Assembly (NCBI GenBank): GCA_020720905.1
Contig: DYNT01000001.1
Location: 1-35,664, forward strand
Direction of reading: 5' to 3'
Source: Micavibrio aeruginosavorus
Lineage (GTDB): Bacteria > Pseudomonadota > Alphaproteobacteria > UBA9219
DNA length: 35,664 nt
Positions 1-28,735 of the stretch are shown one piece after another. Position 1 is the first letter of the stretch. Every line of letters starts with the position of its first letter. A program made the translations under genes and the position numbers. The notes below the pieces were generated by a model that had not been told where the DNA came from, searched no databases, and was given only the letters and a program-made list of their open reading frames with translations.

Positions 1-1337
1 GGATCAAAAATCAAGCCGCTGTCCAAGCCGTTATTGATGTTGTGGTGTCCCTTTCTACTTTGTTTAGCTCCCTTTTTGACGAGACGGAGGAGAAGCTGGC
101 CTCTGATACGCGTGCGCTTTTATATGGGCAGATGGTTAACGCTAAGGTTGAAGAAAGCCTGACGCAGGCGCGCATTGATGGGGGGACGCTCAATACTTTT
201 CGTCGTGCCTCGGTTGCTACCACCATGCAGGGAACGACTCCTAAAAACGAATACTTATGCAAAAAGATTGCGGCGCATCAGCTGACGACAACGACGCAGG
301 ACTTTGAAAAAGAAGTGTCGCGTATGGCCGCCGAGGCGATCAGCAATCGCTATCGTTGTCCAACGTGTGATGGTTGGGGGCCTGATTATGTTGGCAAAGA
401 ATCGGCGCGGCGGTGCGCGCAAGGGTATGGCAATCCCTCGATTGATGGTGCCAAGGCGAGCTGTGAGAAAAAGCTGAGTGATGGGCGAAGCCTTGCTGAC
501 GCCGATCTTGCGCCGCTTGATGAGGGGCAGAGTTATCAGATGCCCAAAATGATTTCCAAGGCCTATACCGATAGTGTAACGGGAGCCAGTCTGGTTGTCA
601 GCGTCCCTGATCCTCAAAATGATCAACAGCGTTTATGGGGTGCGGCTTGGGATAACATCTTCTTGTTGGCGGGGCCACGCCCTACGCCTCGGCATGGGAA
701 AGGGATGAAGACGCCTGTTGGCAAGGTGGAGCGCACCCTGTTCAATCATTGTTTGTCGAGCCAAAACGCCCTTATCAAACAATGCACGGATTTGTTGGCT
801 TATTACACGCGGCCCAATTGTGAAGAAATGCCAGCCTTGTGCGAGGCGCAACAAGAAAAATGTTTGGCTGCGACGAAGATTATTGATTTAGCTCCCTTCG
901 ATCAATGTGAAAAAGGGCTTAGTGCTTACGAAGAGGAGAAGATAAACCAACTTCTTTGCAACAGTACACAACATTATACGGACATGGTTCATGCGGGTTC
1001 GACTTATGATCTTTTGACGGGGTCTAGTGATCTTTGTGACGCCTCTTGGTCACGATGGCGCACGGTTGTGGACAAAAAACACGCGCATTGCACGGCAGCC
1101 ATCGATGGGCTGCAACGGTTAGCATCCTGTTGGGGAGCCGTTGATTCGCTTGGTCGTGGCTCTGCGGCGCTTGAGGATGGGCTGGCAGGCGATGGTTCTT
1201 CCGTTGTGCGCGCTTCGCAGCCGGCGATGGGTGTGCCCATTTATAAGGCCAAATGGTCAACACAGCCGCGACAAAAGGATGCGCTGTCATTCGATGCGGC
1301 AGAACGCGATCCCTTATTGCAAGCTGTTAGCCCATGA
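1..1337 (+). CDS. Secreted Cys-rich paralog A, unknown family (5' end outside window; reading frame starts at nt 3)
   Basis: The frame is open from nt 3 with no upstream stop. The GTG at 42 in the ORF track is probably not the true start. It aligns along its length with the three downstream paralogs, sharing motifs PKNEYLC, QNxxQRxW...LAGPRPT, C(T/A)DLLAY(Y/H)TRP and GLSAY. It carries a C-terminal tail with VVRASQP. Confidence 0.8.
   Translation, partial: IKNQAAVQAVIDVVVSLSTLFSSLFDETEEKLASDTRALLYGQMVNAKVEESLTQARIDGGTLNTFRRASVATTMQGTTPKNEYLCKKIAAHQLTTTTQDFEKEVSRMAAEAISNRYRCPTCDGWGPDYVGKESARRCAQGYGNPSIDGAKASCEKKLSDGRSLADADLAPLDEGQSYQMPKMISKAYTDSVTGASLVVSVPDPQNDQQRLWGAAWDNIFLLAGPRPTPRHGKGMKTPVGKVERTLFNHCLSSQNALIKQCTDLLAYYTRPNCEEMPALCEAQQEKCLAATKIIDLAPFDQCEKGLSAYEEEKINQLLCNSTQHYTDMVHAGSTYDLLTGSSDLCDASWSRWRTVVDKKHAHCTAAIDGLQRLASCWGAVDSLGRGSAALEDGLAGDGSSVVRASQPAMGVPIYKAKWSTQPRQKDALSFDAAERDPLLQAVSP
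254..874 (+). repeat. Copy 1 of 621-bp near-identical block shared by paralogs A and B
   Basis: Offset by 1558 nt to 1812-2432. I found one mismatch (C271 vs T1829). The forward protein and both antisense ORF translations in the track are identical apart from that site. Flanking sequence diverges abruptly. Confidence 0.9.
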
Positions 1338-1356
1338 GGCGGTTGGTGGAAAAAAG

Positions 1357-2736
1357 ATGAAAACACTATCAACTCTTTTTTTAAGAGCGATTCTCGTTGT
1401 TATCGTTGCCTTGAGCTCTGGGCTGATGAACCTTGGCATAGATCCTTATGCGGGAGGTCTTGTCCTAACGGGTCCTCGCGCAAGCGCTGCGGAAGTTATT
1501 TTTAATCCCTTTAAATTGGCGGCCAATCTGGTGCAAGCGGCTGCGGAAAAAGCGAAAGAGGTTATAGAAGAAAGCAATCTGGCAAGTATTATTAGTGGCA
1601 TGACAGGGGTTTATGATCTTCTTGTGGATCAATTTCAAGAATTGAATGATGCCATGAAAGAGAGCTCTCAAGCAAAAAATGCGGCTTTACAGGTTGATGC
1701 GGTGATGGAGATAACCTCTATGCAAGCCCAAATAGATGCGGCAACATCCAATACTCTTTTGAAGGCGCAGTTGGACACCTTGTCTCAAGGGGGGGCTCCT
1801 AAAGGTGAGTATTTATGCAAAAAGATTGTGGCGCATCAGCTGACGACAACGACGCAGGACTTTGAAAAAGAAGTGTCGCGTATGGCCGCCGAGGCGATCA
1901 GCAATCGCTATCGTTGTCCAACGTGTGATGGTTGGGGGCCTGATTATGTTGGCAAAGAATCGGCGCGGCGGTGCGCGCAAGGGTATGGCAATCCCTCGAT
2001 TGATGGTGCCAAGGCGAGCTGTGAGAAAAAGCTGAGTGATGGGCGAAGCCTTGCTGACGCCGATCTTGCGCCGCTTGATGAGGGGCAGAGTTATCAGATG
2101 CCCAAAATGATTTCCAAGGCCTATACCGATAGTGTAACGGGAGCCAGTCTGGTTGTCAGCGTCCCTGATCCTCAAAATGATCAACAGCGTTTATGGGGTG
2201 CGGCTTGGGATAACATCTTCTTGTTGGCGGGGCCACGCCCTACGCCTCGGCATGGGAAAGGGATGAAGACGCCTGTTGGCAAGGTGGAGCGCACCCTGTT
2301 CAATCATTGTTTGTCGAGCCAAAACGCCCTTATCAAACAATGCACGGATTTGTTGGCTTATTACACGCGGCCCAATTGTGAAGAAATGCCAGCCTTGTGC
2401 GAGGCGCAACAAGAAAAATGTTTGGCTGCGACAGGATTTTTGGACTTGGCGCCTTACAAAGATTGCGGAAAGAATGGCGCGATCACGGCTTGGCAGGGAT
2501 TAAGCGCCCATGAGACAGAACAAATTAATCAATACTTGTGTAAGAGCGAGCAGAATAACAATAATTTACTGCAGGAGGGGGCTCAGCACAAAGATTTGAT
2601 TTTGGATATGGCTTATCTTTGTTCCTTGTCCGAGCAGGCGTGGAAGGAATCGGTGGCGCTTAAACATGAAAATTATCGCGCAGCAACGCAAGGATTGCAA
2701 AAGCTTTCCACCTGTTGGGCTGCTGTTGGGAAATAA
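1357..2736 (+). CDS. Secreted Cys-rich paralog B, unknown family
   Basis: ATG at 1357 lies 6 nt after GGTGGA and encodes MKTLSTLFLRAILVVIVALSS, a signal-like hydrophobic N-terminus. The longer 1141 start overlaps the tail of paralog A and was rejected. The central 207 aa are identical to paralog A except one residue. There are about 14 Cys. The protein ends right after CWAAVGK. Confidence 0.85.
   Translation: MKTLSTLFLRAILVVIVALSSGLMNLGIDPYAGGLVLTGPRASAAEVIFNPFKLAANLVQAAAEKAKEVIEESNLASIISGMTGVYDLLVDQFQELNDAMKESSQAKNAALQVDAVMEITSMQAQIDAATSNTLLKAQLDTLSQGGAPKGEYLCKKIVAHQLTTTTQDFEKEVSRMAAEAISNRYRCPTCDGWGPDYVGKESARRCAQGYGNPSIDGAKASCEKKLSDGRSLADADLAPLDEGQSYQMPKMISKAYTDSVTGASLVVSVPDPQNDQQRLWGAAWDNIFLLAGPRPTPRHGKGMKTPVGKVERTLFNHCLSSQNALIKQCTDLLAYYTRPNCEEMPALCEAQQEKCLAATGFLDLAPYKDCGKNGAITAWQGLSAHETEQINQYLCKSEQNNNNLLQEGAQHKDLILDMAYLCSLSEQAWKESVALKHENYRAATQGLQKLSTCWAAVGK
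1812..2432 (+). repeat. Copy 2 of 621-bp near-identical block shared by paralogs A and B
   Basis: See copy 1. Confidence 0.9.
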
Positions 2737-2804
2737 GCCGGTTTGGTGGTTGTCAGGGCGCTATGTTGTAGATGGGCTCTCTATGAGATAAAGGGGTAGG
2801 AGGA

Positions 2805-4352
2805 ATGATAATGCGAGCTATCAAAAAGACGATGTTGGTTCTTTCTCTGATCCTTTGTTTTTTAATGGGGGGAAGTTTTCTGAATCCAACGCCTGCTTAC
2901 GCCGGAAGCCCTGTCGTTACGGATCCTGCTAATTTTGCTGCGACCATGATGGAGTGGGGCGAGCGCTTGGCGGCGATGGCGAAAAAGAGCGCTCTTCTTG
3001 GACAGATTATTTCTTTGATCACATCCGTTCATAACATTATCAATAGCGGCTTTTCTGCCATGACGGATTCAACAAAACAGGATACAAAGCTTAATATCGC
3101 AGGACAACAGGGGCTTGCGCTTATCAAACAGGAAGGCGCGCAGGCTTGGATTGATAGCGATACGTCGGATGCTCTTCTTGCGGCGCAACTTAAGCTTGTG
3201 GCCGATCACGTTGCGCCTAAAAATGAGTATTTATGCAAGGCGACGTTGTTGAATCAATTAACGGGAACAACGGAAGATTTTGAGCGTGGCGTTGCCAGAT
3301 TGGTGCTTAAGGCTATTGAAAGTACAGGCCGTGGCCCAATGGATGATTATGATGGCCCCCAATATGCTTTCGATGAAGAAACCTTGCGCGGCGCAGCAGG
3401 CTTTGGCAATAGTGTTGTGGATGGTTATGATGCGGCTTATAGCGATACCAGCACGACTGTTGGGCCGACCAAGCGGCTTTTTATTGATGCCGATTTGATG
3501 CCTTTTTCGATGGATGGCGCTGTGCCGCTTGAATTGCCACAGTTTACAGCCAAGGCGGTTAATCTTCCCAGCGGAACAATCGTCTCGGCAAGCGTTCCTA
3601 CGCCCCAAAATGAAAATCAAAGAATGTGGCTTGCGGGACTCTACTATTGTTTTCAGCTTGCAGGGCCTCGCCCAACGGCCTCTTGGGGGGACAAAATGAC
3701 GACTCCCCAAGGTCTTGTCGAAAGGGCTCGTTTTGATCATGCCTTAGCCATGCAGAGCGCGATGATTAAGCCTTGTGCGGATTTGTTAGCTTATCATACG
3801 CGTCCGGATTCAAAGGATCTTGCTTCAGCGCCCCTTATCAAGGCGCAACATGAAAGTTGTGCTGCGGCGAAGGGGTATATAAGCGACGAGGATATGAAGG
3901 AAAAATTCAGCAATTGTTTGTCCGATGATTTTAAGGGAATGAGCGCTTATCAGGCAGAGCTTTTAAGCCATTCGATTTGTAAAAGTGAACACCACGCTAT
4001 CTCTTTAAGGCAAGCAGGTGCTACGCCGCCTGAATTGATTAATGACACGATCAAATGTTCTGCGGCGTGGAATACATGGCAGGCTAAGGTTTCTGCTAAA
4101 CAAGGATCTTTGGTTGATGTCGTCGCAGGGATTCAAGAAACCAAAGGCAATTGGGGGGGGATAGGCAATAACATTGCGGGATTGGCGGAACAGGAGAAGG
4201 ACAAGGCTCATCGTGTTGTTAGGGCTTCAAAGCCCAGTCATCAGCCTCCCGTGGCGCAAGACATTAAAGCGCAGAAAATCCCGTTGCTTCCTCGGCATGG
4301 AATTCCCTTTGCGGCGGATGAAGTGACATGGCCTATGGCCGTGTCGCAATAA
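2805..4352 (+). CDS. Secreted Cys-rich paralog C, unknown family
   Basis: A strong RBS (AGGAGGA) precedes the ATG at 2805 (or 2811). The signal peptide ends AYA|GSP. It shares motifs with A, B and D: PKNEYLC, PQNENQRMW..QLAGPRPT, CADLLAYHTRPD, GMSAYQAE. The C-terminal tail carries VVRASKP. Confidence 0.85.
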   Translation: MIMRAIKKTMLVLSLILCFLMGGSFLNPTPAYAGSPVVTDPANFAATMMEWGERLAAMAKKSALLGQIISLITSVHNIINSGFSAMTDSTKQDTKLNIAGQQGLALIKQEGAQAWIDSDTSDALLAAQLKLVADHVAPKNEYLCKATLLNQLTGTTEDFERGVARLVLKAIESTGRGPMDDYDGPQYAFDEETLRGAAGFGNSVVDGYDAAYSDTSTTVGPTKRLFIDADLMPFSMDGAVPLELPQFTAKAVNLPSGTIVSASVPTPQNENQRMWLAGLYYCFQLAGPRPTASWGDKMTTPQGLVERARFDHALAMQSAMIKPCADLLAYHTRPDSKDLASAPLIKAQHESCAAAKGYISDEDMKEKFSNCLSDDFKGMSAYQAELLSHSICKSEHHAISLRQAGATPPELINDTIKCSAAWNTWQAKVSAKQGSLVDVVAGIQETKGNWGGIGNNIAGLAEQEKDKAHRVVRASKPSHQPPVAQDIKAQKIPLLPRHGIPFAADEVTWPMAVSQ

Positions 4353-4370
4353 AGGCAAAGGAACACAAAG

Positions 4371-5783
4371 ATGAGCGTTTGGCCTGCAATAAAAAAGTCC
4401 TTGCAAAGAGAGGATAGAAAAAGAAAGAAGCCGCGTAAGAGGCTGTCTTTCTTTTTTGTGCTAACGGTCATTTTTTTTGTTTTTAGCATAATGTGGCCGC
4501 TGCAGAGCTATGCCATTAAGAATGGGGATACGCCCGTTAGTGCCCAAGAAAATGCTTATACAACCGCAAGTGTTTTACAGGAATTTGCCGATTTTTCGAC
4601 GGAAAATGGATCGTGGGCGTCAATTAAGGCGGGATTCACAACGGTCATGACCACCTTTCAGACTCTTATGAAAAAGTTCTGGGACTTTCATGGCCAATCG
4701 ACTGTTGGGAAATTAACGGCACAAAGGCTTCAGGCGACCATAACGACAGAAGCGTGGCAAGCTGCGTTGGATGCCAGTACCGAGAACGCCGTTCTTGAAG
4801 AAAAAATGAAACATTTAGCGGATCATATCATGCCACCTGCTTCAGAACAGTTTCTGTGCAATCTTATTCTTGCGCGGCAAGGCGTGCCCGTTATGACCGA
4901 GTTTGCGCGTATTATTTCCAAGGTTGTGGCCAAGGGTATTGATGCCCGTTCCCGTAGCAGGGGGAGCGATGGCAATGGTCCGCAATATGCCATGGATGCG
5001 TGGAACATCAAGTGCGGCAAGTATGGCGCTGACAGACCTAAAACAGGGAATGCTATTGATGGTGTGCCAAAGGCATGCCGTGCAGAAGAAACGGCACCTG
5101 CCATTGGCTATGCTGGTGGCGATGTGAGCATGGACACGTTAAGCCGAGAAAAGGTTTATACTGTGCCGCCTGTTAAAGAAGAGACCATGATGATTAATGG
5201 AAAGATGGAAACGGTTGCAGACTTTTTTCCTGATAAAAACAGTAAAGACTATGAAGCGCATCGGCAATGGCTTATGGCGCGGCAATATTGTTATAATCTT
5301 GCTGGCCCGCGCCTTACCCCTCCGCGTGACGAAGATCTGGATACGCCCGCAGGAAAGGCCAATTTCACCTTGTTTACAAGCTGCCTATCACGGCAAAGCG
5401 CTTTTGTTAAAGCTTGCACGGATCGTTTGGGCAAGTTAACGCGACCCGATTGTTCCACTGATGACTTTAAGGAGTTTTGTGACGCCTCTATTCAAGCGTG
5501 CGATGCAGCGCGTGAGTCTCAAATTGTGCTGCCTCCTGAATTTAATAACTGTCAAAGTGGGCTAAGTTTGTATCAGGCGGAATATCTTTCAAACGCTCTT
5601 TGTGGCTCAACGCGTCGCCTTCAAGCTGATACACATGGTGGGGAGCAGGATCATAAAAAGGTCAGTACGCTGTTAATGTGCCAAATCATGAGGGAAGTGT
5701 CAGAGAAACGACAGCAGGAAGAAGATAAGGCGTTTGTAAGAGCCGTGCAGGGGATGCAGAATATGAAGGGGTGCTGGGACTAG
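4371..5783 (+). CDS. Secreted Cys-rich paralog D (most divergent), unknown family
   Basis: The N-terminus is basic, followed by a hydrophobic stretch ending QSYA|I, which looks like a signal peptide. It retains EQFLC, NLAGPRLT, CTDRLGKLTRPDC, GLSLYQAEYL and a terminal GCWD. There are about 13 Cys. Confidence 0.8.
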   Translation: MSVWPAIKKSLQREDRKRKKPRKRLSFFFVLTVIFFVFSIMWPLQSYAIKNGDTPVSAQENAYTTASVLQEFADFSTENGSWASIKAGFTTVMTTFQTLMKKFWDFHGQSTVGKLTAQRLQATITTEAWQAALDASTENAVLEEKMKHLADHIMPPASEQFLCNLILARQGVPVMTEFARIISKVVAKGIDARSRSRGSDGNGPQYAMDAWNIKCGKYGADRPKTGNAIDGVPKACRAEETAPAIGYAGGDVSMDTLSREKVYTVPPVKEETMMINGKMETVADFFPDKNSKDYEAHRQWLMARQYCYNLAGPRLTPPRDEDLDTPAGKANFTLFTSCLSRQSAFVKACTDRLGKLTRPDCSTDDFKEFCDASIQACDAARESQIVLPPEFNNCQSGLSLYQAEYLSNALCGSTRRLQADTHGGEQDHKKVSTLLMCQIMREVSEKRQQEEDKAFVRAVQGMQNMKGCWD

Positions 5784-5904: not shown

Positions 5905-6747
5905 ATGGTTACGATAACATCAAATGAATCGGAAAAAGACGTAAGTGCCCATCTTCAAACGATGGTGGCTTCTTTTCGTCAAGTCGGTCTGCCTCTTTTG
6001 CAGGCGATGGTTGACGTTTCTGGAAGCGGCGCGGCTGAGGCAGAAAGTGTCCAAGAGCAGCGCATGGGGGATTTAATTGAGTGTGCCGTTCTTTTGAGCC
6101 GTGAACTGGCCAAAGAAATGGGCGCTGATGAGGGGGCTCTTGCCCCATCCGTGCGGTGGAATTTGGCCGGATCGGCAAGTCAGATCGTAGCGGCCAACTA
6201 TCAAGCGACGGGACAGGTTCTATCGGCCGAGGCTATAGCGCGGCTTGTTCATATTGCTACGACACTTCAGGAAAAATTTAAAAGTCAGATCCCTGTTGGC
6301 GGAGAAACACTTCCCAATACCGTTGCGACGTTTCGCGCTAAGATGATGGAGGGGTTTGTTCCTGTCATTGGCGCTGTTGCCCAATATGCTTTTGGTCGCG
6401 CCGAACATGACTTATTGGCCGAAATTTCAGAAAGGCTTGTCAAGACAGCCGAGCAAGTGACGCGAACGCTTGCCGCACCTGGTTCGTCTCCTGAACAGTG
6501 GCGTCTTTTGTGTTGGACCATTCTGCGGGCGGCGGGACAGATTTATACGGAAAGTCATTATGCTGAGGCGGATCGTTTGAACGCCATGGCTCCCGATGAT
6601 CAAGCGGACTACTTTGCGCAGCATAGCTCAGCTGTTCCTATGACACAGGTTTGGCAAGCTTTTAATCAGCGCATGGCGATGCTTGCGACGTTGTCCTCTT
6701 ATTTAGAGGTTCCCCCTTCTGCTCATTTAGAAGATCAAGGGTGGTGA
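5905..6747 (+). CDS. Hypothetical cytoplasmic protein (no signal peptide, acidic, Ala/Leu-rich)
   Basis: A 280-aa ORF fills the gap between paralog D and the transglycosylase gene. It is co-directional and ends 4 nt before the next start. I recognise no motif. The RBS is weak. Confidence 0.55.
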   Translation: MVTITSNESEKDVSAHLQTMVASFRQVGLPLLQAMVDVSGSGAAEAESVQEQRMGDLIECAVLLSRELAKEMGADEGALAPSVRWNLAGSASQIVAANYQATGQVLSAEAIARLVHIATTLQEKFKSQIPVGGETLPNTVATFRAKMMEGFVPVIGAVAQYAFGRAEHDLLAEISERLVKTAEQVTRTLAAPGSSPEQWRLLCWTILRAAGQIYTESHYAEADRLNAMAPDDQADYFAQHSSAVPMTQVWQAFNQRMAMLATLSSYLEVPPSAHLEDQGW

Positions 6748-6751
6748 TCTT

Positions 6752-7207
6752 ATGCTAACCGCTCAAGCCCTTGCCGCTTGTATGATGCTTGCTTCGCAAA
6801 CGTATCATGTTCCGCCAGCTGTGATGGTGGGCATTATGCACGTTGAGGGGGGGCGCGTTGGGCAACAGGTTGGTCCCAACAGCAACGGAACGTATGATCT
6901 GGGCCCCATGCAGGTTAATACACGGTGGATCCCTCAATTGGCTCACGCTTGGGGCGTTGATAAAAAAGTTGCGCATCGGCTTCTTCGTGACGATGGCTGC
7001 GTCAATGTTCGTGTTGCCGCTTGGATCCTTGGCCAAAAAATAAAAGAAGCAGGGTCTCTTTATGGGGGCATTGCTTACTATCATTCGGCAACGCCTGGCA
7101 TTGGACCTCGTTATGCTGCCAAGGTTATTGCCGTGATGGAGCTCAAGGGGCTTATCAAACGGGGCTATGCAAAAACGAAGAATCAGGCTTACTATGCACA
7201 GCGTTGA
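6752..7207 (+). CDS. Lytic transglycosylase, SLT domain (VirB1 / TrbN / R64 PilT-like specialised peptidoglycan hydrolase)
   Basis: Motifs IMHVEGGR (candidate catalytic Glu), NSNGTYDLGPMQVN and AYYHS match the pattern of secretion- and pilus-associated SLT enzymes. The size is 151 aa. Confidence 0.85.
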   Translation: MLTAQALAACMMLASQTYHVPPAVMVGIMHVEGGRVGQQVGPNSNGTYDLGPMQVNTRWIPQLAHAWGVDKKVAHRLLRDDGCVNVRVAAWILGQKIKEAGSLYGGIAYYHSATPGIGPRYAAKVIAVMELKGLIKRGYAKTKNQAYYAQR

Positions 7208-7262: not shown

Positions 7263-8252
7263 ATGAGAATAACCCGTTTTTTAAGAATGATGGTTGGCAG
7301 TGTTGCCCTGTTGGTGAGCGGGGCTTCTTTTGGTTTTGCGCAAGCGCCTTCTGATATAAGCGGGCCTTCTTCCCTTTTTAACATCAATGTGCGTCCCCCT
7401 GATATTAACGCGATACCTGTTTTAATGAATCTTGTGAAAAGTGGTGGGAAATTATATTTTCTTGGTGAACGCTCTGGCATGCTTGGTTGGTTTATCATTA
7501 AGGATGGGCAGGTTCAGATCATCTATTTGTCTCCAGATAAGCAAACGGCGTTGATCGGTGGCATGTTTTCGGCGCAGGGAGAGAATGTGACTTCGCCTCA
7601 AATTAGTGCCTTGGTTGAAAAAAACACCGAAGTCAAGGCTTTGTTGTCGGGAACAGCGCAACAACAACGTGAAGTTTATAATGCGGGTGCGCCAGATGGC
7701 GCTGGCTCTGTTCCAGCTGGAGAACACAAGGCTGAGGCCGCCTCTCAGGGAGGGGCGAGCTTAGGGGGATTGCCGTCAGCGGCTTTGTCTCCTGGGGAAC
7801 GCCTTATGCAGGATCTTAAGGCTGCGGCTGGTGTGACGATGGGGCAGAATGAATCGGCTGAATTGATCATGGTTGCGGCTCCTGACTGCCCTAATTGTAA
7901 GAAAACATGGATGGAATTGCGAGATTCTGTTCGGAATAACAAGATTCAGGTGCGTGTTGTTCCCGTTTATAACAGTACGGGGGAGGGCGAGATTCGCGTT
8001 GCTGCGCAGCTGCTTAAAACGGCCAATCCTCTTGAGGCATGGGATCGTTATGTTGAGGGCGATGCTGCGGCTTTAGCTGGAGAGCCTGACGACATGGCGC
8101 GCCGCGCTGTTATAGGCAACCTTAATCTTGTCGCAAAGTGGAACATTCAAGGGTATCCCTATATGGTTTATCGGGGGAAGGATGGCCGAATCAAGATTGT
8201 GCAAGGGAAGCCAGAGCGCATGGCGGCTGTGTTGACGGACTTAAGTCGTTAA
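7263..8252 (+). CDS. Periplasmic DsbC/DsbG-like thiol:disulfide isomerase (TrbB-like)
   Basis: It has a signal peptide (ASFGFAQA). A DsbC-type N-terminal dimerisation region is followed by a thioredoxin fold with a CPNC active site (APDCPNCKK). The downstream GYPYMVY is a candidate cis-Pro loop. Confidence 0.8.
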   Translation: MRITRFLRMMVGSVALLVSGASFGFAQAPSDISGPSSLFNINVRPPDINAIPVLMNLVKSGGKLYFLGERSGMLGWFIIKDGQVQIIYLSPDKQTALIGGMFSAQGENVTSPQISALVEKNTEVKALLSGTAQQQREVYNAGAPDGAGSVPAGEHKAEAASQGGASLGGLPSAALSPGERLMQDLKAAAGVTMGQNESAELIMVAAPDCPNCKKTWMELRDSVRNNKIQVRVVPVYNSTGEGEIRVAAQLLKTANPLEAWDRYVEGDAAALAGEPDDMARRAVIGNLNLVAKWNIQGYPYMVYRGKDGRIKIVQGKPERMAAVLTDLSR

Positions 8253-8264: not shown

Positions 8265-8549
8265 ATGGGGTTTTTAAGCAAGCCATCCAAGTTTTCCAAG
8301 GGAAGGGCTCTGCTGCCTTCTCTTGATGTTAGGGGGCGTGGCGGACTGCAAACCTTTCTTTCCTTTCCAAAGGGAAAGGACGAAAAAATTCCTAATGCCT
8401 CTTTGGTTTATGGTATTTTTTCTGCCGCGCTGCTGTCTTTTTCCCTTTATCATTTGTTTACCGGCTTATGGTTTACTGCCTTCTTGTTGTGTGTGGTGGC
8501 CTTGATTGTTTTTGGGTTTTCTCTCTATTTTCTCCGCTATTCAGGGTGA
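8265..8549 (+). CDS. Small inner-membrane protein (2 predicted TM helices), unknown function
   Basis: A good RBS (GGGGGAGGA) precedes the ATG at 8265. There are two long hydrophobic segments in the C-terminal half. It is co-directional and tightly packed. Confidence 0.55.
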   Translation: MGFLSKPSKFSKGRALLPSLDVRGRGGLQTFLSFPKGKDEKIPNASLVYGIFSAALLSFSLYHLFTGLWFTAFLLCVVALIVFGFSLYFLRYSG

Positions 8550-8661
8550 ATAATTCGTGGAAGAGCCTATAATCAGGGAGCCTGATTATAGTAAAACTAA
8601 GAACGGTCTTCCTTCTGCTGAAGGGAGGCGTCAAGGCGTTATCTTTATGATGGTGGATGTG

Positions 8662-9159
8662 ATGACAATGATAAAAATCATGCCAATGGTGGCGTTGTTG
8701 GGGGTTGGCGTTCTTGTATCGGGGTGTGTTACATCGACGAGCATGACCCCTGTTGCGACGGAGCCTGATGTTGTTAGTGTGCGTTTGGCACAGGCAGCAG
8801 AAAAAGCCTCGAATGCGCTGGATTCTCTTTCTGGTATTGAACAATACCGTGAACCACAGCTTCCTGCGCCTGATGATTATTCTTCTGCGCCGCCTTCTCT
8901 AACGCAACTTATTTCCATTCAGTGGTCGGGGCCTATTGATCAAATCTTGCAAACGTTAGCAACGCGGGCAGGAATGCGTTATAGAACGATCGGAAGCCCA
9001 TCGGGCGTTCCCCTTCTTGTCAATCTAGACGTTTATCAAAAGCCGTTGATTGAGGTTCTTCACGACCTTGGCCTTCAGGCGGGGCGTCGGGCCGATGTTT
9101 CGGTTGATAACATCAATAACTCGATAGAGATCCGCTATGCACCTGTTGACAGAATCTAA
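8662..9159 (+). CDS. dotD: DotD / TraH-like outer-membrane lipoprotein (T4BSS core component family)
   Basis: Lipobox LVSGC. The C-terminal region is WSGPIDQILQTLATRAGMRYRTIGSPSGVPLLVNL...IEVLHDLGLQAGRRADVSV...IEIRYA. It tracks Legionella DotD (WSGPIEEL...FRFRVLGKSPSVPVLISI...YQAGKKASIHV...VELRYA, from memory). I chose the start at ATG 8662, after GGTGGA. The ORF is open from 8557. Confidence 0.85.
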   Translation: MTMIKIMPMVALLGVGVLVSGCVTSTSMTPVATEPDVVSVRLAQAAEKASNALDSLSGIEQYREPQLPAPDDYSSAPPSLTQLISIQWSGPIDQILQTLATRAGMRYRTIGSPSGVPLLVNLDVYQKPLIEVLHDLGLQAGRRADVSVDNINNSIEIRYAPVDRI

Positions 9160-10009
9160 TCCATCTAAAAGCCGGCGTCTTCTTTTGGCGCCCCTTTTTA
9201 TCGCAATCCTTTTTGCGTTGAGCGTTTCTGGGGCGTTGGCGCAACAAACGGTGGCGACAGAGGCCTCGCCACCTCCGCCTGTTCTAAAAGATTTGCAGGA
9301 ACAAAGTAGCGGCGAAGACTCTGGAAAAACAGATGTGATGGGTTTGCAAATCAGGCATGATGCTTTGCGTGAAGCGGCTCTTTCCTATGGCGCTCGTGGC
9401 GGGTTGGCTTATCGCACTTTTGAAATCCAAAGGCGTCTTGTTGAACATGAGGCGAGTCTTTCAAAGATTTTTAATTTTACACGGTTGTTGATTAGTGCCC
9501 CCTCTGGTCTACTTATTGAGCCGCCCATTGTCAGCGAAGCGCAGCGTGCCGTTATCGTCAATGGTGGGGGGCAAGAAGCGGCTGTTTCGGATCGCGTTTT
9601 GCGAATCAACAAAGCGGCTCGTATTGTAACGGCTCCGCGTAATTGGCTCCTCTATTTAGAGCGCGACTGGGGCACTGTTGATGCGCCTCCAGGGCTGTTG
9701 CTTCCTCGCAATGATGAGGAGCGCGCCCAATGGAAAACTTTAGTGCAAGAGGGGTGGAATGCGGGCGTTGCGCAAGCCGAGGAGACCTTTGAATCTGATC
9801 TTGATCGGATGACCAATGATTATATCGGGATGGTTCATTATCGCACGTTGTTGGTGCAAGGGATGATTTCTCCCCCTTATGCGATGCATGAAGATCGTGG
9901 CGTAACGGGTGGCGGTTCTGAAATGAGGGTGGGTGATCGTGGCGTTTCGATCACGGGGCCTTCTGTTCTTATTCCTCGGAGCGATAAGTGGACAACGGCA
10001 CTCCGTTAA
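9137..10009 (+). CDS. dotC: DotC / TraI-like periplasmic/outer-membrane T4BSS core protein
   Basis: It has a signal peptide. Motifs LREAALSYGARGGLAYR, IEPPIV and MISPPYAMHEDRGVTGGGSEMRVGDRGVSIT closely resemble DotC (LKETALSVGAQAGLAWR, ILPPVL, MVSPPYVSHTDLGVTGDGSEIHIDDRVLRIT, from memory). It overlaps dotD by 23 nt. No lipobox is seen. Confidence 0.85.
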   Translation: MHLLTESNPSKSRRLLLAPLFIAILFALSVSGALAQQTVATEASPPPPVLKDLQEQSSGEDSGKTDVMGLQIRHDALREAALSYGARGGLAYRTFEIQRRLVEHEASLSKIFNFTRLLISAPSGLLIEPPIVSEAQRAVIVNGGGQEAAVSDRVLRINKAARIVTAPRNWLLYLERDWGTVDAPPGLLLPRNDEERAQWKTLVQEGWNAGVAQAEETFESDLDRMTNDYIGMVHYRTLLVQGMISPPYAMHEDRGVTGGGSEMRVGDRGVSITGPSVLIPRSDKWTTALR

Positions 10010-11250
10010 ATCTCAGTGTGGACGATTTTCAGGTTCGACTTGCGGCGGGTTGGACTAATGAGCCTGTGCGCATTCAAGAAGAACACATAGATGATCTCTT
10101 ATTATGGTGTGTCCATAGCCGCGCTACCGATGTCAGCATTCAAACGGATCGCCCTATTGTTATCGAAGTGGACGGTGTTCTCTATCCCATAACGCAGCGA
10201 GCCATGGATTCGGCGGATATGGCCAATATCTTGATGCGTATTTATGGGCCTGAAGCTTTGGCGAAACTGGCCTCTGGCGTTGATTTGGATCTATCTTATG
10301 AGGTTAGGCCTGAGCGTTTAACACGTTATCGTTTTCGTACCAATATCACGGCTATTTTAAGTCGTGGGCGTGATTCTGTCCAAATTACATTGCGCAGTTT
10401 GCCTGGATTGCCCCCAAGTATGGTTGATTTGGGAATAGAAGAGCCCATTATACGGAACTGGTCGCCGCGACAGGGCTTGATTTTAGTAACGGGGCCTACG
10501 GGAAGTGGGAAAACAACCCTTTTGGCTTCGGGATGCCGAATGCTGATTGAGAGAGAACAGGGCTCCGGCAAGCTTCTAACGTATGAAGCACCTATCGAAT
10601 ATGTTTATGACAGCATTACGGGGCCGCGTTCTCTTGTGGCTCAATCGGAAGTGCCGCGCCACATCCCCTCTTTTGCGGCAGGGGTGCGTAATGCTTTGCG
10701 TCGCAAACCTAACATCATTCTTGTGGGTGAGGCTCGTGATAGGGAAACGATGTCGGCGGCCATTGAGGCAGGACAAACGGGGCATTTGGTTTTTTCAACG
10801 GTTCATACTGTGGGCGTTGCCGCAACGGTAAGGCGTATTGTCAGCGTTTTTGAGCCCGCAGAACGAAGCGAACGCGCTTTTGCCTTAATGGAAACATTGC
10901 GCATGGTTGTGACCCAAGCGTTGGTTCCTAAAGTGGGGGGGGGGCGCATTGGATTAAGGGAATATTTGGTTTTTGATGACAACATTCGAGAACAACTTTT
11001 AGATATGCCTGTTGATAAATGGACGCTGGAGACCCAGCGCTTTCTTGTTCGCTATGGGCAAACGATGCAACAATCCGCTAATAGGGCGTTTAAGCAAGGG
11101 CTTATTGATCGCAGAACGTATCTGGTTTTAACAAAAGGTTATACGATCGATGAGGGGGATTATGACCCTTCTGTTGCCGATCCCATAGAAAAAGAGCCCG
11201 ATCATGATCTTGAAACGATACCCGATGATGATGATACGACGATGATTTAA
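9988..11250 (+). CDS. dotB: DotB / TraJ-like PilT-family hexameric secretion ATPase
   Basis: Walker A is LVTGPTGSGKTT, Walker B is IILVGEARD, and the His box is GHLVFSTVHT. It sits directly after dotD-dotC, as in the Legionella dotDCB operon. The GTG start overlaps the dotC end. The C-terminal tail is acidic (PDDDDTTMI). Confidence 0.85.
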   Translation: MDNGTPLNLSVDDFQVRLAAGWTNEPVRIQEEHIDDLLLWCVHSRATDVSIQTDRPIVIEVDGVLYPITQRAMDSADMANILMRIYGPEALAKLASGVDLDLSYEVRPERLTRYRFRTNITAILSRGRDSVQITLRSLPGLPPSMVDLGIEEPIIRNWSPRQGLILVTGPTGSGKTTLLASGCRMLIEREQGSGKLLTYEAPIEYVYDSITGPRSLVAQSEVPRHIPSFAAGVRNALRRKPNIILVGEARDRETMSAAIEAGQTGHLVFSTVHTVGVAATVRRIVSVFEPAERSERAFALMETLRMVVTQALVPKVGGGRIGLREYLVFDDNIREQLLDMPVDKWTLETQRFLVRYGQTMQQSANRAFKQGLIDRRTYLVLTKGYTIDEGDYDPSVADPIEKEPDHDLETIPDDDDTTMI

Positions 11251-11290: not shown

Positions 11291-11557
11291 ATGGACATTC
11301 ATTGGAGAAACACACAAAAGCCCGTTCGCTTTCTCTTTCTTGATGCGCGTGCCTTTTTTGGCGTTATTCTTTTCCTTGTTCATGCTAGAATGTGGGTTTT
11401 CGTTCTCGTTTGTTTTTATATTTTTATGTTTTGGCTTTTTGAAAAGCGCGGTCTGTCTTTTGAATCGGCTGTGCGAGCGATTCGTTGTTGGGCTCTAGGG
11501 CGACGGCGTCCCGCGAACAGCCGTCGAGCGATTCGAAACATGGTCGATTTTTCGTGA
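11291..11557 (+). CDS. icmT: IcmT / TraK-like small inner-membrane T4BSS protein
   Basis: An 88-aa protein with RBS AAGGAGAGA. The sequence HWRNTQKPVRFLFLDARAFFGVILFLVHARMW..., one TM helix and a basic C-terminus resemble IcmT (HWRDSARTP.FFF.D..AAFP.VLFLLHIR.W, from memory). Its position after dotB matches traH-I-J-K order in IncI plasmids. Confidence 0.75.
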   Translation: MDIHWRNTQKPVRFLFLDARAFFGVILFLVHARMWVFVLVCFYIFMFWLFEKRGLSFESAVRAIRCWALGRRRPANSRRAIRNMVDFS

Positions 11558-11594: not shown

Positions 11595-11921
11595 AGGCTC
11601 CCTTGCCCAATTTTTTAAAACGATAGCCTCTCCACCTTTCTCCTACGCTGCTTCGCAGCTTCGGCGCGGTAGGTCGCGGGGATGACAACGGGATCCTTTG
11701 TCCCTTTGTGAACCAACGTATGGTTGGATTGCTATAAACACGGCTTGTCATTTTGATGGAGAAACGAAAGGGATTCTTGTTTTTTCAAAGCGTGGCGGTG
11801 TGTCTAAAAATACACACTCTTCTGTTGAATGGTGTCGGGGCGATTCGTCTTAGGTTGCTCTCCTTGCGTTCATCCTTTAAGCTTTCTTGCGAATCGCCTT
11901 CGCTCGAAAAAGGGCCTAGAA

Positions 11922-12929
11922 ATGCAAAAAAACAATCGTCGTTCTACCATTCTTTTCCTCGGATACCTTCCTCTTGTCGCTGGGGCTTTGTTGTCAACAA
12001 CGCCAGCCTATGCAGGGTTTAAGTGGGTTTCCTCGGATGCGGTGCAAAGCACCAATGTCTCTGTCACGCCGCAAGCCGCGCCGGCAACAGGTTCTGTTCC
12101 CACTTCTTTCGGGGGGGCAGAAGCTGTTGTTATTGAGTCTGCGCCCGCTTCACAAGAAGCCGCGTTTTCGACTCTTGCAAAAGAAAAGTCAAAGACGCCT
12201 CATGATGATGTTGTCGTCAAGGGGTTTGCTGATCGTGTCCCCCTTTCTGTCGCGTTGCGTCAAGTTTTGCCGCCTGAAATCGGCTTCTCTGTCGCTCAGG
12301 ACGTTAGTTTGGGAACGCCTGTTTCTTGGCGGGGCGGGGCGCCTTGGCGTCAGGTTTTAAAAGATATGCTGTCGCCATCTGGTTTGACCATGCGTGAGCA
12401 AGGGCAAATGGTTCATGTTGTTCATATGACAGAGGGACAGGATTCGGCGTTGTCGTTGGACAAGCCCCTTCCCCCTGTTTCAGGGAATGGGAAACCGTTG
12501 TCTTTGTTGCCGTCCCTTTCTGCTGTTGCGCCTAAGTCCGCTGGCTCTTCGCCTGCGCCCTTGGCGTCATCCTCTGGTTTTTTGAGTGCGCCGAACGCCC
12601 TTGCGTCTGGCGTGGAGCGCTCCCCAGTTGTGGCTGACTCGTCAGCCGCTGGTTTGGGGGCTTGGCAAGCTAACAGCGGGGACATGCTTAAAAAGACGCT
12701 TGAGACATGGGGGCGGAACGCCAATGTTGAGGTTAGCTGGCAAGCTGAATACGATTATCCTGTTCAGGCCTCTGTTTCTTTTTCGGGAGATTTCGAAGGG
12801 GCTGTTCGCAATCTTTTGTCTGGATTTCAAGAGGCAAAGCCACAGCCGGTGGGGTACTTATATAACAATCAGTCTGCTGGTCAGACCGTTCTTGTCATCC
12901 AAACGCGCGGTAATAATTACAGCGAATAA
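11922..12929 (+). CDS. pilL: PilL-like type IVb pilus biogenesis protein (TcpQ-type C-terminal domain)
   Basis: The signal peptide ends PAYA|G. The linker is long and Ser/Pro/Ala-rich. The C-terminal WQANSGDMLKKTLETWGRNANVEVSWQAEYDYPV...FSGDFEGAVRNLL is typical of the PilL/TcpQ domain. It lies immediately upstream of the pilN secretin, as in R64/SPI-7. The start is taken at ATG 11922; the ORF is open from 11829. Confidence 0.75.
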   Translation: MQKNNRRSTILFLGYLPLVAGALLSTTPAYAGFKWVSSDAVQSTNVSVTPQAAPATGSVPTSFGGAEAVVIESAPASQEAAFSTLAKEKSKTPHDDVVVKGFADRVPLSVALRQVLPPEIGFSVAQDVSLGTPVSWRGGAPWRQVLKDMLSPSGLTMREQGQMVHVVHMTEGQDSALSLDKPLPPVSGNGKPLSLLPSLSAVAPKSAGSSPAPLASSSGFLSAPNALASGVERSPVVADSSAAGLGAWQANSGDMLKKTLETWGRNANVEVSWQAEYDYPVQASVSFSGDFEGAVRNLLSGFQEAKPQPVGYLYNNQSAGQTVLVIQTRGNNYSE

Positions 12930-12941
12930 TGAGGCCTAAAC

Positions 12942-14543
12942 ATGAGCTTCCGTCATCTTGCCCTTTTCTTGGTTGTTATTGCGCTCTTGGGCTGTAATAA
13001 TGAAAAAAACAGGAACCTTATTGATCAGCGTGTCGAGAGGGTAGAGCGCGTTGCTAAAAAAGCAACGCTCCCTGCGCCTCCCAAAAGCTATGATCCTCTT
13101 ACGGTTTCAGACAAGGTTTGGTCTGGCAATTCGTCAACGCGTCTTCGTCGCGGCATTCCTTTGCCAGGCAAGTATGAAGGCTCTTATGGCGTGACCCTTA
13201 TTTCAAGTGAGCCCCTTTCGTTGAGCGAGATTGGATCGGCTGTTGGTGTTCAAACGGGCTTGCCTGTGCGCATTGCTTCTGGTGCAGCGGGTGGGTTGGG
13301 TGATGGTGATAATGGTACGGGCGCAATGGAAGGCAAGATGCTCGTTTCTTATGAAGGGCCGTTGTCTGGCCTTTTAGATTTGGTCTCGGGTAACTTTGGC
13401 ATTAGTTGGCGTTTTGATGGCACGGCGATCAAGCTTTCTCGTTTTGAAACGCGCGTGTTTGTCGTTGAATCGTTACCTGGAACGCAGTCCATTAAGGATG
13501 GCATAAAAGAAGATTCGGGAAGTAGCGGCGGGAGCAGCAGCACTTCTAGCGCTGGCGGAAGTTATAGCATGAGCTCTAGCAGTTCCTTGCAGCAATCTTC
13601 TGAAATGAGCGTTGAGATGAAGGTATGGGATGAGTTGGAGAAGACCCTTTCTTCGATTTTGGGTGGGGTTGGTTCGGTTTCTCTTTCGCCCTCTAGTGGG
13701 ACGGCTGTTGTGACAACGACACCGGAGCTTATGCAAGTTGTTGCCAAATTTATGGAAGAGGAAAACCAGCGTTTATCACAACAAATTGCCATCAATGTTG
13801 AAATTTATACGGTCGCTCTTTCCGATAATGCAGACTTTAATGTGACGTTTACTTCTGCGTTGAAGAAAATTAGCAGCGGTCTTGATCTTAATATCACGCA
13901 AGGCGTGGCGGGATTGGGATCTGCGGCGGTTTCTGATGGCGCATCTATGTCGCTGGCTATTTTGGATCCGAATAAGACAGGGCAGATTACAAGCGTGTTT
14001 TCTGCCCTCTCTTCCATTGGGGATACGACGCGCGTTTCCCAATTCCCTCTAACAACATTGAATAATCGTACGGTCTCTCGCCGTATTGGTGAAGACGTGA
14101 CCTATGTTGCGGCTATTTCAAAGACGGTTGGAACCTCAACAACCAGCGAGTCGGTCACGGTTACGCCTGGAACGGTTCGTGATGGGTTTTCGCTGCAGTT
14201 GACCCCCCGTCTTTTGCAAGATGGCCGTATCATGTTGCAGTATTCGCTTAGCTTGATCGATTTGCTCCAGCTGGTTGAATTTAATACTGGGGATGCTGGC
14301 AATGTTCAATTGCCACAAACGGCAAGCCGTGTTTTTGTTCAGCAAGCCATGCTCAAGAGCGGATCAACGCTCATTTTAGGTGGCTATGATGATGAAAAGA
14401 CAAGCCAGTCCTCCAATGGTGTTGGGAATGCTTACAACTACTTCCTTGGGGGTGGTTCTTCGAATGATAAAACGCGCACCATGATGTTTATTGTCATTAC
14501 ACCACAAGTCGTGAGCGTTCAGAAAACGGAGCAAATTGAATGA
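12942..14543 (+). CDS. pilN: PilN-type lipoprotein secretin of type IVb pilus
   Basis: Lipobox LLGC|N. The C-terminal secretin domain reads ...STLILGGYDDEK...NYFLGGGSSNDKTRTMMFIVITPQVV. There is an internal Ser-rich low-complexity stretch. Size and position match R64 PilN. Confidence 0.9.
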   Translation: MSFRHLALFLVVIALLGCNNEKNRNLIDQRVERVERVAKKATLPAPPKSYDPLTVSDKVWSGNSSTRLRRGIPLPGKYEGSYGVTLISSEPLSLSEIGSAVGVQTGLPVRIASGAAGGLGDGDNGTGAMEGKMLVSYEGPLSGLLDLVSGNFGISWRFDGTAIKLSRFETRVFVVESLPGTQSIKDGIKEDSGSSGGSSSTSSAGGSYSMSSSSSLQQSSEMSVEMKVWDELEKTLSSILGGVGSVSLSPSSGTAVVTTTPELMQVVAKFMEEENQRLSQQIAINVEIYTVALSDNADFNVTFTSALKKISSGLDLNITQGVAGLGSAAVSDGASMSLAILDPNKTGQITSVFSALSSIGDTTRVSQFPLTTLNNRTVSRRIGEDVTYVAAISKTVGTSTTSESVTVTPGTVRDGFSLQLTPRLLQDGRIMLQYSLSLIDLLQLVEFNTGDAGNVQLPQTASRVFVQQAMLKSGSTLILGGYDDEKTSQSSNGVGNAYNYFLGGGSSNDKTRTMMFIVITPQVVSVQKTEQIE

Positions 14544-15805
14544 CCGCTGGCCTTGTTACCATTGGTCGCAAACAATATGCCAGTGGCTTGTATTGGGAAA
14601 ACAGTCCCAGTGGCCGCATATCGCAGGCTGCGAAAGAGGCCGCCAAGCAACCGGGGACGCAAGCCGATTATTTTGCGGCACGATCAGGGAATAAACAGGG
14701 GCGAGTTCCTCAATTCGGGTTAGTTCAAGCTGTTGAAGGGTTCCGTTCTGGTCTTCCTTCTTTAGCAGGATGTTTGGCTAATAAGCAGCCAGGTTCTTGG
14801 ATTGGTGCCTTTCGTTTGCGCGAAGGAACGGCTGTCGTCGTTGTGCGGGATGATCTTATTGTCCCCGATGGTGACCGCTTCTTTCAAGATGAAACAGAGG
14901 CTCGTGATCATCTTTATCAGGAAATGGCGATTGGTGGATTTCAGCGCATTTATGCGCCAGAGCCATGGGGCGTTCCTGGTGCCGATACGATGCCCATCAC
15001 CCTTTTGTTGGATGAAAGTTCGGACGTTCGCCTTCATGGGGTTGCCCTGTCTCAACAGGCCAAGACAGGGATTGTGATTGGGGGGATGCTTTTGCTCCTT
15101 GTCATTGGTGTTGGCTGGTATATTCAAGATCAAAAGGAGAAAGAAGAGGTGCTTCGTCTCCAGCAGCTTGCGGCGATGGAGCGCATGAAGGCTGAGGCGG
15201 CCAAGCTCCTTCCTCTTCAGCAACAAGTGGTTTATCCACCACCAGAACGCAAATGGGAAAAACAGCCCAAATCGTTAGAAGTGATCGCGGCGTGTCAAAA
15301 AGCGCTTGAGCAGGTTGTCGTCGGTATCAGTGGATGGAACATCTCAAGCATAAAGTGTTCGCCAAAAAGCTTAGAGATTTCTTGGTCTCGAACGGGTGGT
15401 TTTTCAAATCCGCCACCTAAAACCGTTGTTTCTGTTTCGGGCGAGCAAGCTTCTGGAAGTGTTGCTTTTGAGCCGTTGTCGCCTCGTGGTGATGAATATC
15501 TTGTTAATCCTGATGTTATAACAGGGCGTTATTTAAGCCAGAATTGGACAGGGACTTTGCGGCGTGAGCCGGATGATCCTCCTCCTCCTCCTCCTCCTGG
15601 CTATAAAGGGGAGTGGAATCCTCCACCAGCCCCATGGGTTAAGCGTTCTTTTACGTTTACTGTTCCAGTATTGCCGTGGACACTACCGGACTTCTTAATG
15701 GATATCCCAGGAGTCATCGTGGATTCACTGGCTCTTACGGGCGGTGGTGTTGGAAGCAAAAACAGTTGGAAGGTTGAAGGAGTGATTTATGAAAATCGCC
15801 GTTAA
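14540..15805 (+). CDS. pilO: PilO-like (R64 PilO / PilO2 family) type IVb pilus accessory protein, bitopic membrane protein
   Basis: The N-terminus TIGRKQYASGLYWE resembles the PilO2 family signature. There is a central TM helix (GIVIGGMLLLLVIGVGWYI). The ATGA start/stop overlap with pilN suggests translational coupling. It contains a poly-Pro tract. Confidence 0.75.
   Translation: MTAGLVTIGRKQYASGLYWENSPSGRISQAAKEAAKQPGTQADYFAARSGNKQGRVPQFGLVQAVEGFRSGLPSLAGCLANKQPGSWIGAFRLREGTAVVVVRDDLIVPDGDRFFQDETEARDHLYQEMAIGGFQRIYAPEPWGVPGADTMPITLLLDESSDVRLHGVALSQQAKTGIVIGGMLLLLVIGVGWYIQDQKEKEEVLRLQQLAAMERMKAEAAKLLPLQQQVVYPPPERKWEKQPKSLEVIAACQKALEQVVVGISGWNISSIKCSPKSLEISWSRTGGFSNPPPKTVVSVSGEQASGSVAFEPLSPRGDEYLVNPDVITGRYLSQNWTGTLRREPDDPPPPPPPGYKGEWNPPPAPWVKRSFTFTVPVLPWTLPDFLMDIPGVIVDSLALTGGGVGSKNSWKVEGVIYENRR
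15578..15598 (+). repeat. (CCT)7 trinucleotide repeat encoding Pro7 inside pilO-like gene
   Basis: Direct reading of 15578-15598 gives cct x7. The protein reads PDDPPPPPPPGY. Confidence 0.95.
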
Positions 15806-16574: not shown

Positions 16575-16692
16575 AGGATTTATTGACGAACCGATGCCTA
16601 TACTTTGTTGCGGTATGTTCGCCCTGCTCTAAGCTCTAAGGATTGGTGACCATGGTTGTTGCTGGGGCGTGATCACAGGATTGGTTTGACTC

Positions 16693-19775: not shown

Positions 19776-19792
19776 GGAAAAAGGATAGTACG

Positions 19793-24421: not shown

Positions 24422-24426
24422 GGTGG

Positions 24427-28282: not shown

Positions 28283-28321
28283 AGCGCACCTGATGATATC
28301 CTTTGTGTTCTTTTTGTTAAA

Positions 28322-28735
28322 TTACGGCGTTGTCCCCGTGCTTGCTGGCGCTTGCTCTGTGGGGGCGTCTGCTTTGGCGTCTATAAGGGCTCTTGTTTTT
28401 CCAGTGCGATAATTGTTCATGGACGAAGCAGCCAGCGTGCCGTCGGCTTTTCCCAAAGGCTTTCCTTCAATCAAATCTTCGGGGCGATCAACGTGCGCAG
28501 CCAAATTACGCGCAGCGGCGCAGCCCAGCTGCGGCGTGATTGTGTTTTCATTGTCTCCTATAGATGTTGTCGCCCAGCTTGGACAATCGGGAGGGACGGC
28601 GACGCTGTCGCTTTCCTTGGCCGAGGGCATAAGGCGGATGCGGTAATCGGGGGCGGGCGTTGCCTCGCAACCGGCAAGGCACAGCGCGGCGAAAGGCAAA
28701 GCAAGAAGGAAGGTGCGAGAAAAAGAAGGCGTCAT
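28322..28735 (-). CDS. cpaD: CpaD pilus biogenesis lipoprotein
   Basis: Lipobox LAGC. The motif GCAAARNLAAHVDRPEDLIEG..LGKADG and the YRTGK pattern are characteristic of CpaD. Confidence 0.8.
   Translation of the reverse strand: MTPSFSRTFLLALPFAALCLAGCEATPAPDYRIRLMPSAKESDSVAVPPDCPSWATTSIGDNENTITPQLGCAAARNLAAHVDRPEDLIEGKPLGKADGTLAASSMNNYRTGKTRALIDAKADAPTEQAPASTGTTP

Follow-up and report, generated by a model that had tools for sequence, protein, structure and literature searches.

The four genes at the start of a 35,664-nucleotide stretch of DNA from Micavibrio aeruginosavorus (GenBank assembly GCA_020720905.1, contig DYNT01000001.1, positions 1–35,664 of the forward strand; this whole stretch is called the window below) encode secreted cysteine-rich paralogs, named here A, B, C and D. 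With moderate confidence these proteins are placed among the TraW/IcmX (VirB5-class) proteins, in a cysteine-rich branch that lacks annotation; they would form the oligomeric stalk-tip of type IVB/IncI-type machines. The assignment is made at the level of sequence profiles and architecture, not of curated models or significant fold matches.

An earlier note on this DNA, made from the sequence alone, had described four consecutive genes for paralogs with signal peptides, a helical N-terminal third, shared motifs and from about 7 (C) to about 14 (B) cysteines. The open reading frames (ORFs), the protein sizes (459–515 amino acids (aa); at least 444 aa for A) and a full-length alignment agree with this description. 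All four ORFs lie on one strand (+) and are translated without stops; the window starts inside the gene of paralog A, and paralog C has 513 aa if counted from the ATG at 2811. Identity of A to the other copies is 70% (B), 36% (C) and 27% (D), and the motifs P.xE(Y/F)LC, LAGPR.T, TP.G, C(T/A)D.L...TRP(N/D), GLS.Y and terminal CW are found in invariant or near-invariant columns. Cysteines number 15 in A (partial), 14 in B, 8 in C (7 in the mature protein) and 13 in D. The family had also been called unrecognised, and it has neither a Pfam nor an NCBIfam model: scans at E≤0.01 gave no match for any of the four paralogs, ten remote family members are likewise without a Pfam match, and PLSDB searched by DNA and by tblastn returned nothing.

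Probable relationship of the paralogs to TraW and IcmX

Profile–profile comparison, one of the checks proposed in the earlier note, provides the principal evidence. In hhalign, the 123-sequence family alignment matches an alignment of seven TraW sequences (from IncI1, IncK, IncL/M and other MPF_I plasmids) with a score of 40–44, E of 5e-5 to 1.4e-4 and a probability of 52–67%. The match extends over ~160 colinear columns (family 269–441 vs TraW 210–372) and includes the motifs Q..W.AA..Y...AGPRP and GLS.YQ.E. The 61 control comparisons did not exceed 23.8: the reversed TraW profile scores 15.0, 30 column shuffles have a mean of 14.1 (standard deviation 2.5, maximum 23.8), and 30 block shuffles have a mean of 16.2 (maximum 20.2). 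The score grows with the depth of the family alignment, from 25.2 with 13 sequences and 31.2 with 37 to 44.0 with 123. When the family is split into two disjoint halves, both align to the same TraW region (scores 32–35), and the greedy alignment is colinear along the whole length. Judged from these sequence comparisons, remote homology of the family to TraW is likely, though not proven.

TraW of plasmid R64 shares one row of a review table with VirB5, TrwJ, TrbJ, CagL and IcmX (PMC12624023). The earlier note had rejected any resemblance to IcmX; this rejection is not upheld, since profile–profile comparison ties the family to TraW, which in IncI plasmids corresponds to IcmX.

The predicted structure points in the same direction. 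With 13 sequences, AlphaFold2 gives a poor model (predicted local distance difference test, pLDDT, 56), whereas paralog C modelled from 123 sequences reaches a pLDDT of 85.4 with a core above 95. In this model, a signal peptide is followed by a single continuous 94-residue helix (41–134), which accounts for the helical N-terminal third, by a mixed domain of two beta hairpins and several helices, by a 43-residue C-terminal helix (408–450) and by a disordered tail. For IcmX, the published description lists a signal peptide, then an N-terminal helix, an extended domain and finally helices at the C-terminus; the protein is termed VirB5-like and forms a pentamer atop DotA (bioRxiv 10.1101/2025.06.23.660953). 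The order of domains in the model, signal-peptide features included, is the order described there for IcmX.

The paralogs resemble IncI1 (R64-type) TraW and Legionella IcmX in Sec export, in approximate size (400–466 aa), in the order of their parts and in being encoded beside DotD, DotC, DotB and IcmT. They differ from TraW in cysteine content (7–19 cysteines with covarying pairs vs 3–4 in TraW). They differ from both in occurring in 1–5 copies, in the C-terminal peptide of many members, and in being chromosomal, in uncultured bacteria whose metagenome-assembled genomes (MAGs) are labelled as Alphaproteobacteria.

Several results weigh against this assignment. The curated NCBIfam model conj_TraW (NF033888), on which IncI1 TraW scores 555 bits, misses all four paralogs at E≤0.01. 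A single TraW sequence compared with the family profile gives nothing (probability ≤0.2), and a single TraF sequence remains at the same level. A search of PDB sequences with the TraW profile did not retrieve IcmX, and for this reason the step from TraW to IcmX rests on the literature and on architecture. Structural search with Foldseek against the PDB found no significant match for either model (none at E≤0.001 with the pLDDT 85 model). The entry of top probability in both runs was 9ngy_AP1, from the Legionella DotA-IcmX protochannel entry, at a non-significant level (E 0.3–0.5, template modelling score 0.16–0.21); the chain was taken as IcmX from its size alone and is treated as a lead only. 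Searches of PDB sequences with two family profiles, one of them that of 123 sequences, gave chance helical matches only. Finally, no DotA/TraY-like partner, DotG or DotH was seen, either in the window or, for the related loci, within 10 kb.

Disulfide signature, C-termini and copy history

An exhaustive hidden Markov model (HMM) search of 1.84 billion representatives retrieved 160 family clusters, 121 of them below 1e-30. A word-indexed search found only ten relatives of the paralogs, one of which (P0001) is 100% identical to paralog C, and the same ten on repeats with alignments. Signal peptides were judged by sequence features rather than by a predictor. Among 131 full-length members, an N-terminal hydrophobic core is present in 124, K/R ahead of it in 122 and AxA behind it in 104, in agreement with the signal peptides noted earlier.

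Cysteine covariation was examined in the 123-sequence alignment, with positions numbered as in paralog C. Cysteine columns are gained and lost strictly pairwise, and seven co-occurring pairs are formed: 336/345 (69/69 co-occurring) and 313/449 (78/78), both with phi 1.00, then 177/180 (phi 0.96), 352/371 (0.89), 196/212 (0.86), 392/418 (0.77) and 282/324 (0.58). Since the columns appear and disappear in pairs, a signature of disulfides, the paralogs are very probably disulfide-bonded. Disulfide bonding with the help of a DsbC-like protein had been suggested earlier, and a DsbG-like gene is co-encoded in all cases. A further residue, Cys144 (window ~3234–3236, alignment column 383, within the P.xEYLC motif), is located just past the long N-terminal helix and is kept in 118 of 122 sequences, with no covarying partner. 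As a consequence, the number of mature cysteines is odd in 89% of family members. Cys144 may form an intermolecular disulfide.

C-termini are of two classes. Short forms stop just past the CW motif, and long forms add a linker of 50–90 aa. Twenty-six representatives of the long form carry a terminal peptide, ...P.G(V/R)P(V/F)SADE(I/V)x(L/W)Pxx(V/A)xQ, whose spacing to the carboxyl end is constant, with Q as the last residue in 22. Of the window copies, A and C have the long form (C-termini at ~1150–1337 and ~4150–4352), the tail of A being ~60 aa with the C-terminus ...LLQAVSP; B and D are short forms.

Copy number varies between related loci. Five copies are found in L006; four in the window, L001 and L004; three in L022, L024, L027 and L051; two in L008, L028, L030 and L041; one in about nine loci; in L048 and L052 none was detected. 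In the clade of the window three groups, A/B, C and D, are orthologous and position-conserved across four genomes. Members of C and D have 45–72% identity to their orthologs vs 25–37% to paralogs, D diverging most of the three and closing the array in every case. Two further lineages each have two copies, which are sisters specific to that lineage. The copies had been compared with amplified, diverging pilus components of other systems. A recent amplification of this kind is not supported: each group keeps its orthologs at the same position in four genomes, many loci have a single copy, and the window copies are old paralogs (25–48% identity), the tract identical between A and B (discussed below) being the sole exception.

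Type IVB context, proposed role and alternative explanations

Genomic context was surveyed in nine loci reached via family members and in 37 reached via the neighbouring gene Z; co-occurrence with dot/pil genes and copy number were among the checks suggested previously. The closest loci belong to MAGs labelled Micavibrio sp. IMS_BF and Rhodospirillaceae bacterium UBA8914. The recurrent gene order is Wzy_C, X, Y, the family (n copies), Z, SLT, DsbG-like, u94, DotD-DotC-DotB-IcmT and PilL-PilN-PilO. The family is encoded upstream of the Z-to-PilO block in every locus with enough flank, and this constant linkage agrees with the earlier proposal that the proteins are part of the adjacent machine. 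The array is, however, not the head of the locus, as had been stated: X, Y and the Wzy_C gene precede it in related loci. The flanks consist of housekeeping genes on contigs of up to 824 kb, indicating that the locus is chromosomal and long-established.

In L038 and L040, DotM and a DotL-like coupling protein (~805–824 aa) are encoded directly upstream (Pfam; DotM_C 3e-40 to 1e-47). By phmmer, both genes are also upstream in L044 and L055, and the DotL-like gene only in L046. In L040 and L055, an ORF ahead of the DotM/DotL pair matches IncI1 TraU (a DotO/VirB4-class ATPase; fragment) at 2e-22 and 2e-9, respectively. The presence of DotO, DotM and DotL upstream in related lineages implies a genuine type IVB system. 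The possibility that DotD, DotC and DotB are orphans serving the pilus only was dropped, since DotO, DotM and DotL are contiguous in related loci. In the lineage of the window, housekeeping genes flank the locus on both sides, and the other type IVB genes must therefore be located elsewhere in the genome. Within the literature searched, no paper tied Micavibrio to type IVB systems, and the genome paper of M. aeruginosavorus ARL-13 reports no type IV secretion system (PMC3189940). In the gene list of this strain, the neighbourhood of the tad and groESL genes shows no such locus, hence no claim concerning predation is made.

The following role is proposed for the paralogs as TraW/IcmX-class proteins. 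Judging from its sequence features, each paralog is exported by Sec, and the covariation shows that it very probably acquires three to seven intramolecular disulfides in the periplasm. The co-encoded DsbG-like isomerase, constantly linked to the family, probably aids this folding. By analogy with IcmX and with VirB5 pentamers, an oligomer could be assembled via the long N- and C-terminal helices; it would be located on the axis of the machine below the DotC/DotD outer-membrane cap and may move outward and touch the target cell when the machine fires. In this lineage a single ancestral gene would have given rise to four or five old, non-redundant copies with two kinds of C-terminus, which could either co-assemble as a mixed tip or serve as alternative tips. 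A more specific version seems improbable when taken as a whole: a hetero-oligomeric, possibly pentameric tip, linked through Cys144 and anchored by ...SADEIxLPxxVxQ, in a chromosomal type IVB plus thin-pilus machine with which Micavibrio-like bacteria would attack or exploit other cells. The VirB5-class tips described in the literature consulted are pentamers of one protein.

Type IVb pili export soluble proteins such as TcpF (TCP pilus of Vibrio cholerae) and CofJ (CFA/III pilus of enterotoxigenic Escherichia coli). The paralogs could accordingly be soluble adhesins or colonisation factors of this kind, which the type IVb pilus next to them would secrete or display, and not parts of a channel. 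The array is linked to PilL-PilO in all loci, the window adds PilP-PilR and two pilins, signal-peptide features and disulfides are typical of extracellular proteins, and the conserved terminal peptide of the long forms could act as a docking signal. This explanation is nevertheless unlikely, since no sequence or fold likeness of the paralogs to any such protein was found, the protein matched at profile level, TraW, is a component of type IVB machines, and the IncI1 and pND6-2 plasmids, where traH-I-J-K stand beside pilL-V, have the same pil genes and no family member. Translocated or released effectors or toxins, for example a multi-component helical pore-former like the tripartite ClyA-family toxins, are very unlikely. 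The long helices and beta hairpins of the model, the tandem paralogous genes and the labels of the source MAGs (Micavibrio sp. and Rhodospirillaceae) could be read in favor of a pore-former, and the first, low-confidence model weakly matched XaxB, ClyA and Hbl B. Among the matches of the model with pLDDT 85, none is to ClyA, Hbl, Nhe or XaxAB, many loci have a single copy, and the gene list of the predator ARL-13 mentioned above shows no such locus next to tad and groESL. As for effectors, Sec signal peptides and a cysteine-rich make-up are not known as features of Dot/Icm-translocated proteins.

The number of copies in the array is itself subject to an alternative. A and B have a tract of ~609 identical base pairs, which could reflect gene conversion of recent date or a repeat sensitive to assembly. 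In the Logan assembly of SRR1560848 (L002, 1–7185), the left flank of A is joined to the right flank of B in one hybrid gene. The contig starts exactly at window position 1, i.e., both assemblies break at the same upstream point. Because this assembly jumps across the tract, the A/B copy number is assembly-sensitive, and the four-copy array could be partly an artefact of a genome with three copies and a single A/B hybrid. This is quite improbable. The window has unique sequence right of A and left of B, each bounded by the repeat on its outer side, for which a tandem pair is the simplest explanation, and in two other genomes the orthologs of A and B are separate genes that share no tract of identity, which argues that both genes are real.

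With the paralogs regarded as VirB5/IcmX-class tip proteins, two known systems are comparable. The Bartonella Trw system, cited in the earlier note as a precedent, proves apt in that TrwJ is listed as the VirB5 counterpart and belongs to the same row as TraW and IcmX (PMC12624023). In both cases VirB5-class genes (trwJ in Bartonella) are present as tandem copies in one secretion locus, with recombination between copies, represented here by the identical A/B tract. Unlike in Trw, the tip gene alone is multiplied, without neighbours of the VirB6 or VirB7 role; the copies are old and orthologous by position, and the machine belongs to type IVB instead of type IVA. F-type systems offer another comparison. 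There, TraN, TraU and TraH are cysteine-rich periplasmic or outer-membrane transfer proteins that have a dedicated DsbC-like protein, TrbB/TraF. The co-encoding of cysteine-rich proteins with a DsbC-like gene is common to both, whereas the paralogs match no Pfam or NCBIfam model, hence none for these F-type families, and belong to an MPF_I/type IVB machine.

With this assignment, ~160 protein clusters that are missed by all curated libraries would acquire a name and a role that can be tested. Tip proteins of the VirB5/IcmX class would, in addition, be able to carry many disulfide bonds and to multiply into stable sets of paralogs. The results further indicate that uncultured Micavibrio-like bacteria have, on their chromosomes, a conserved locus combining type IVB and thin-pilus genes. 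Should the copies form a mixed tip, or determine the target range, they would be relevant to the way in which type IVB machines recognise their target cells and breach them.

Neighbouring genes of the array

The features of the window and of related loci are collected in Table 1.

Table 1. Positions of the array genes, their neighbours and corresponding features in related loci (HMM, Pfam and NCBIfam values are E-values)
Feature	Sequence	Position	Strand	Properties
Paralog A	window	3–1337	+	5' end cut by window edge; 444+ aa; family HMM 2.6e-148; A/B clade
Paralog B	window	1357–2736	+	459 aa; short form, C-terminus CWAAVGK; signal-peptide-like N-terminus; A/B clade
Paralog C	window	2805–4352	+	515 aa; long form, C-terminus ...GIPFAADEVTWPMAVSQ
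Paralog D	window	4371–5783	+	470 aa; short form, C-terminus GCWD
A/B identical tract	window	~262–870 = ~1820–2428	+	~609 bp, 100% identity, offset 1558; central domain of A and B
Z	window	5905–6747	+	280 aa; no signal peptide; no Pfam/NCBIfam match
Small lytic transglycosylase	window	6752–7207	+	SLT domain; TrbN/IagB-like, VirB1 role
DsbG/DsbC-like periplasmic thioredoxin-fold protein	window	7263–8252	+	CPNC motif; signal peptide
u94	window	8265–8549	+	94-aa two-helix membrane protein; weak IcmV match (NCBIfam IcmV_IVB 0.024); in all loci
DotD/TraH lipoprotein	window	8557–9159	+	Pfam DotD 5.5e-26; NCBIfam 1.7e-26
DotC/TraI lipoprotein	window	9137–10009	+	Pfam T4SS_TraI 2.1e-70
DotB/TraJ ATPase	window	9988–11250	+	Pfam T2SSE 3.3e-35; traJ position of IncI1 and pND6-2 plasmids
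IcmT/TraK	window	11291–11557	+	NCBIfam IcmT_TraK 1.5e-22
IncI-type type IVb (thin) pilus gene set	window	11829–21011	+	
PilL	window	11829–12929	+	
PilN secretin	window	12942–14543	+	
PilO	window	14540–15805	+	
PilP	window	15789–16574	+	
PilQ ATPase	window	16693–18669	+	
PilR	window	18666–19775	+	
Two prepilins	window	~19793–20419 and 20418–21011	+	
Complete tad/cpa pilus locus	window	23456–32055	-	TadC, TadB, CpaF, CpaE-like, CpaD, CpaC, CpaB, A24 prepilin peptidase (31336–32055)
Wzy_C region	related loci	L001 3128–4941; L005; L006; L008 2257–5989; L038 4438–7534; L040 5114–7404		
X, secreted	L001	4999–6240		by synteny upstream of window; ~400–460 aa; weak SLT-like N-terminal part; no Pfam match
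Y, secreted	L001	6266–6943		by synteny upstream of window; ~200–255 aa; no Pfam match
Z orthologs	related loci	L001 13158–14015; L006 12906–13772; L008 11737–12660; L020 13594–14439		

No gene of the locus is more conserved than Z (59–88% identity across lineages vs ~20–70% for the paralogs). Its invariant stretches include PEQWRLLCW..LRAAG.IY.E.HYAEADRL and PMTQVWQAF.QRMAMLAT. Z has no similarity to IncI1 TraE; it is a predicted cytoplasmic component of this type IVB variant. The DsbC-like CPNC protein seen previously at 7263–8252 is confirmed by its NCBIfam DsbG match (7.3e-23, below the curated cut-off), together with a weak Thioredoxin_2 match (1.3e-4).

Legionella region I holds icmX, icmW, icmV, dotA and dotB-C-D. 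If the IcmV match of u94 is real, the gene order around u94 loosely recalls this region. The true start of DotD is probably internal to the ORF listed. IcmT/TraK is regarded as the VirB3 counterpart (PMC12624023). Beyond the pilus genes, ordinary chromosomal genes are followed by the tad locus, 2.4 kb away from the thin-pilus genes. Its A24 peptidase is the only prepilin peptidase of the window, the type IVb locus being without its own. Promoter and terminator scans gave chance-level results only, and Rfam gave no match.

The upstream genes X and Y are also found in L004–L006, L008, L017 and L020. Y has the cysteine-containing C-terminal domain of X (GKI.DTYCL.VY.DYF...IEAA). When HMMs of X, Y, Z, u94 and the thioredoxin-fold protein were compared with the ORFs of the IncI1 and pND6-2 plasmids, the sole signal was the weak SLT-like N-terminus of X. 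The upstream 413-aa protein has no similarity to TraF. IncI1 TraF itself (plasmid pSH1148_107, L010 17218–18420), whose sole annotation is that of a conjugal transfer protein, matches the outer-membrane family PorV/PorQ of NCBIfam at 5.6e-15.

The Wzy_C gene (O-antigen-ligase-like) is located at the upstream edge of the locus in all cases. Frequent companions of this gene are glycosyltransferases, a homolog of the Ivy lysozyme inhibitor or an M23 peptidase, which hints at glycosylation of a locus product and at self-protection from the transglycosylases of the locus.

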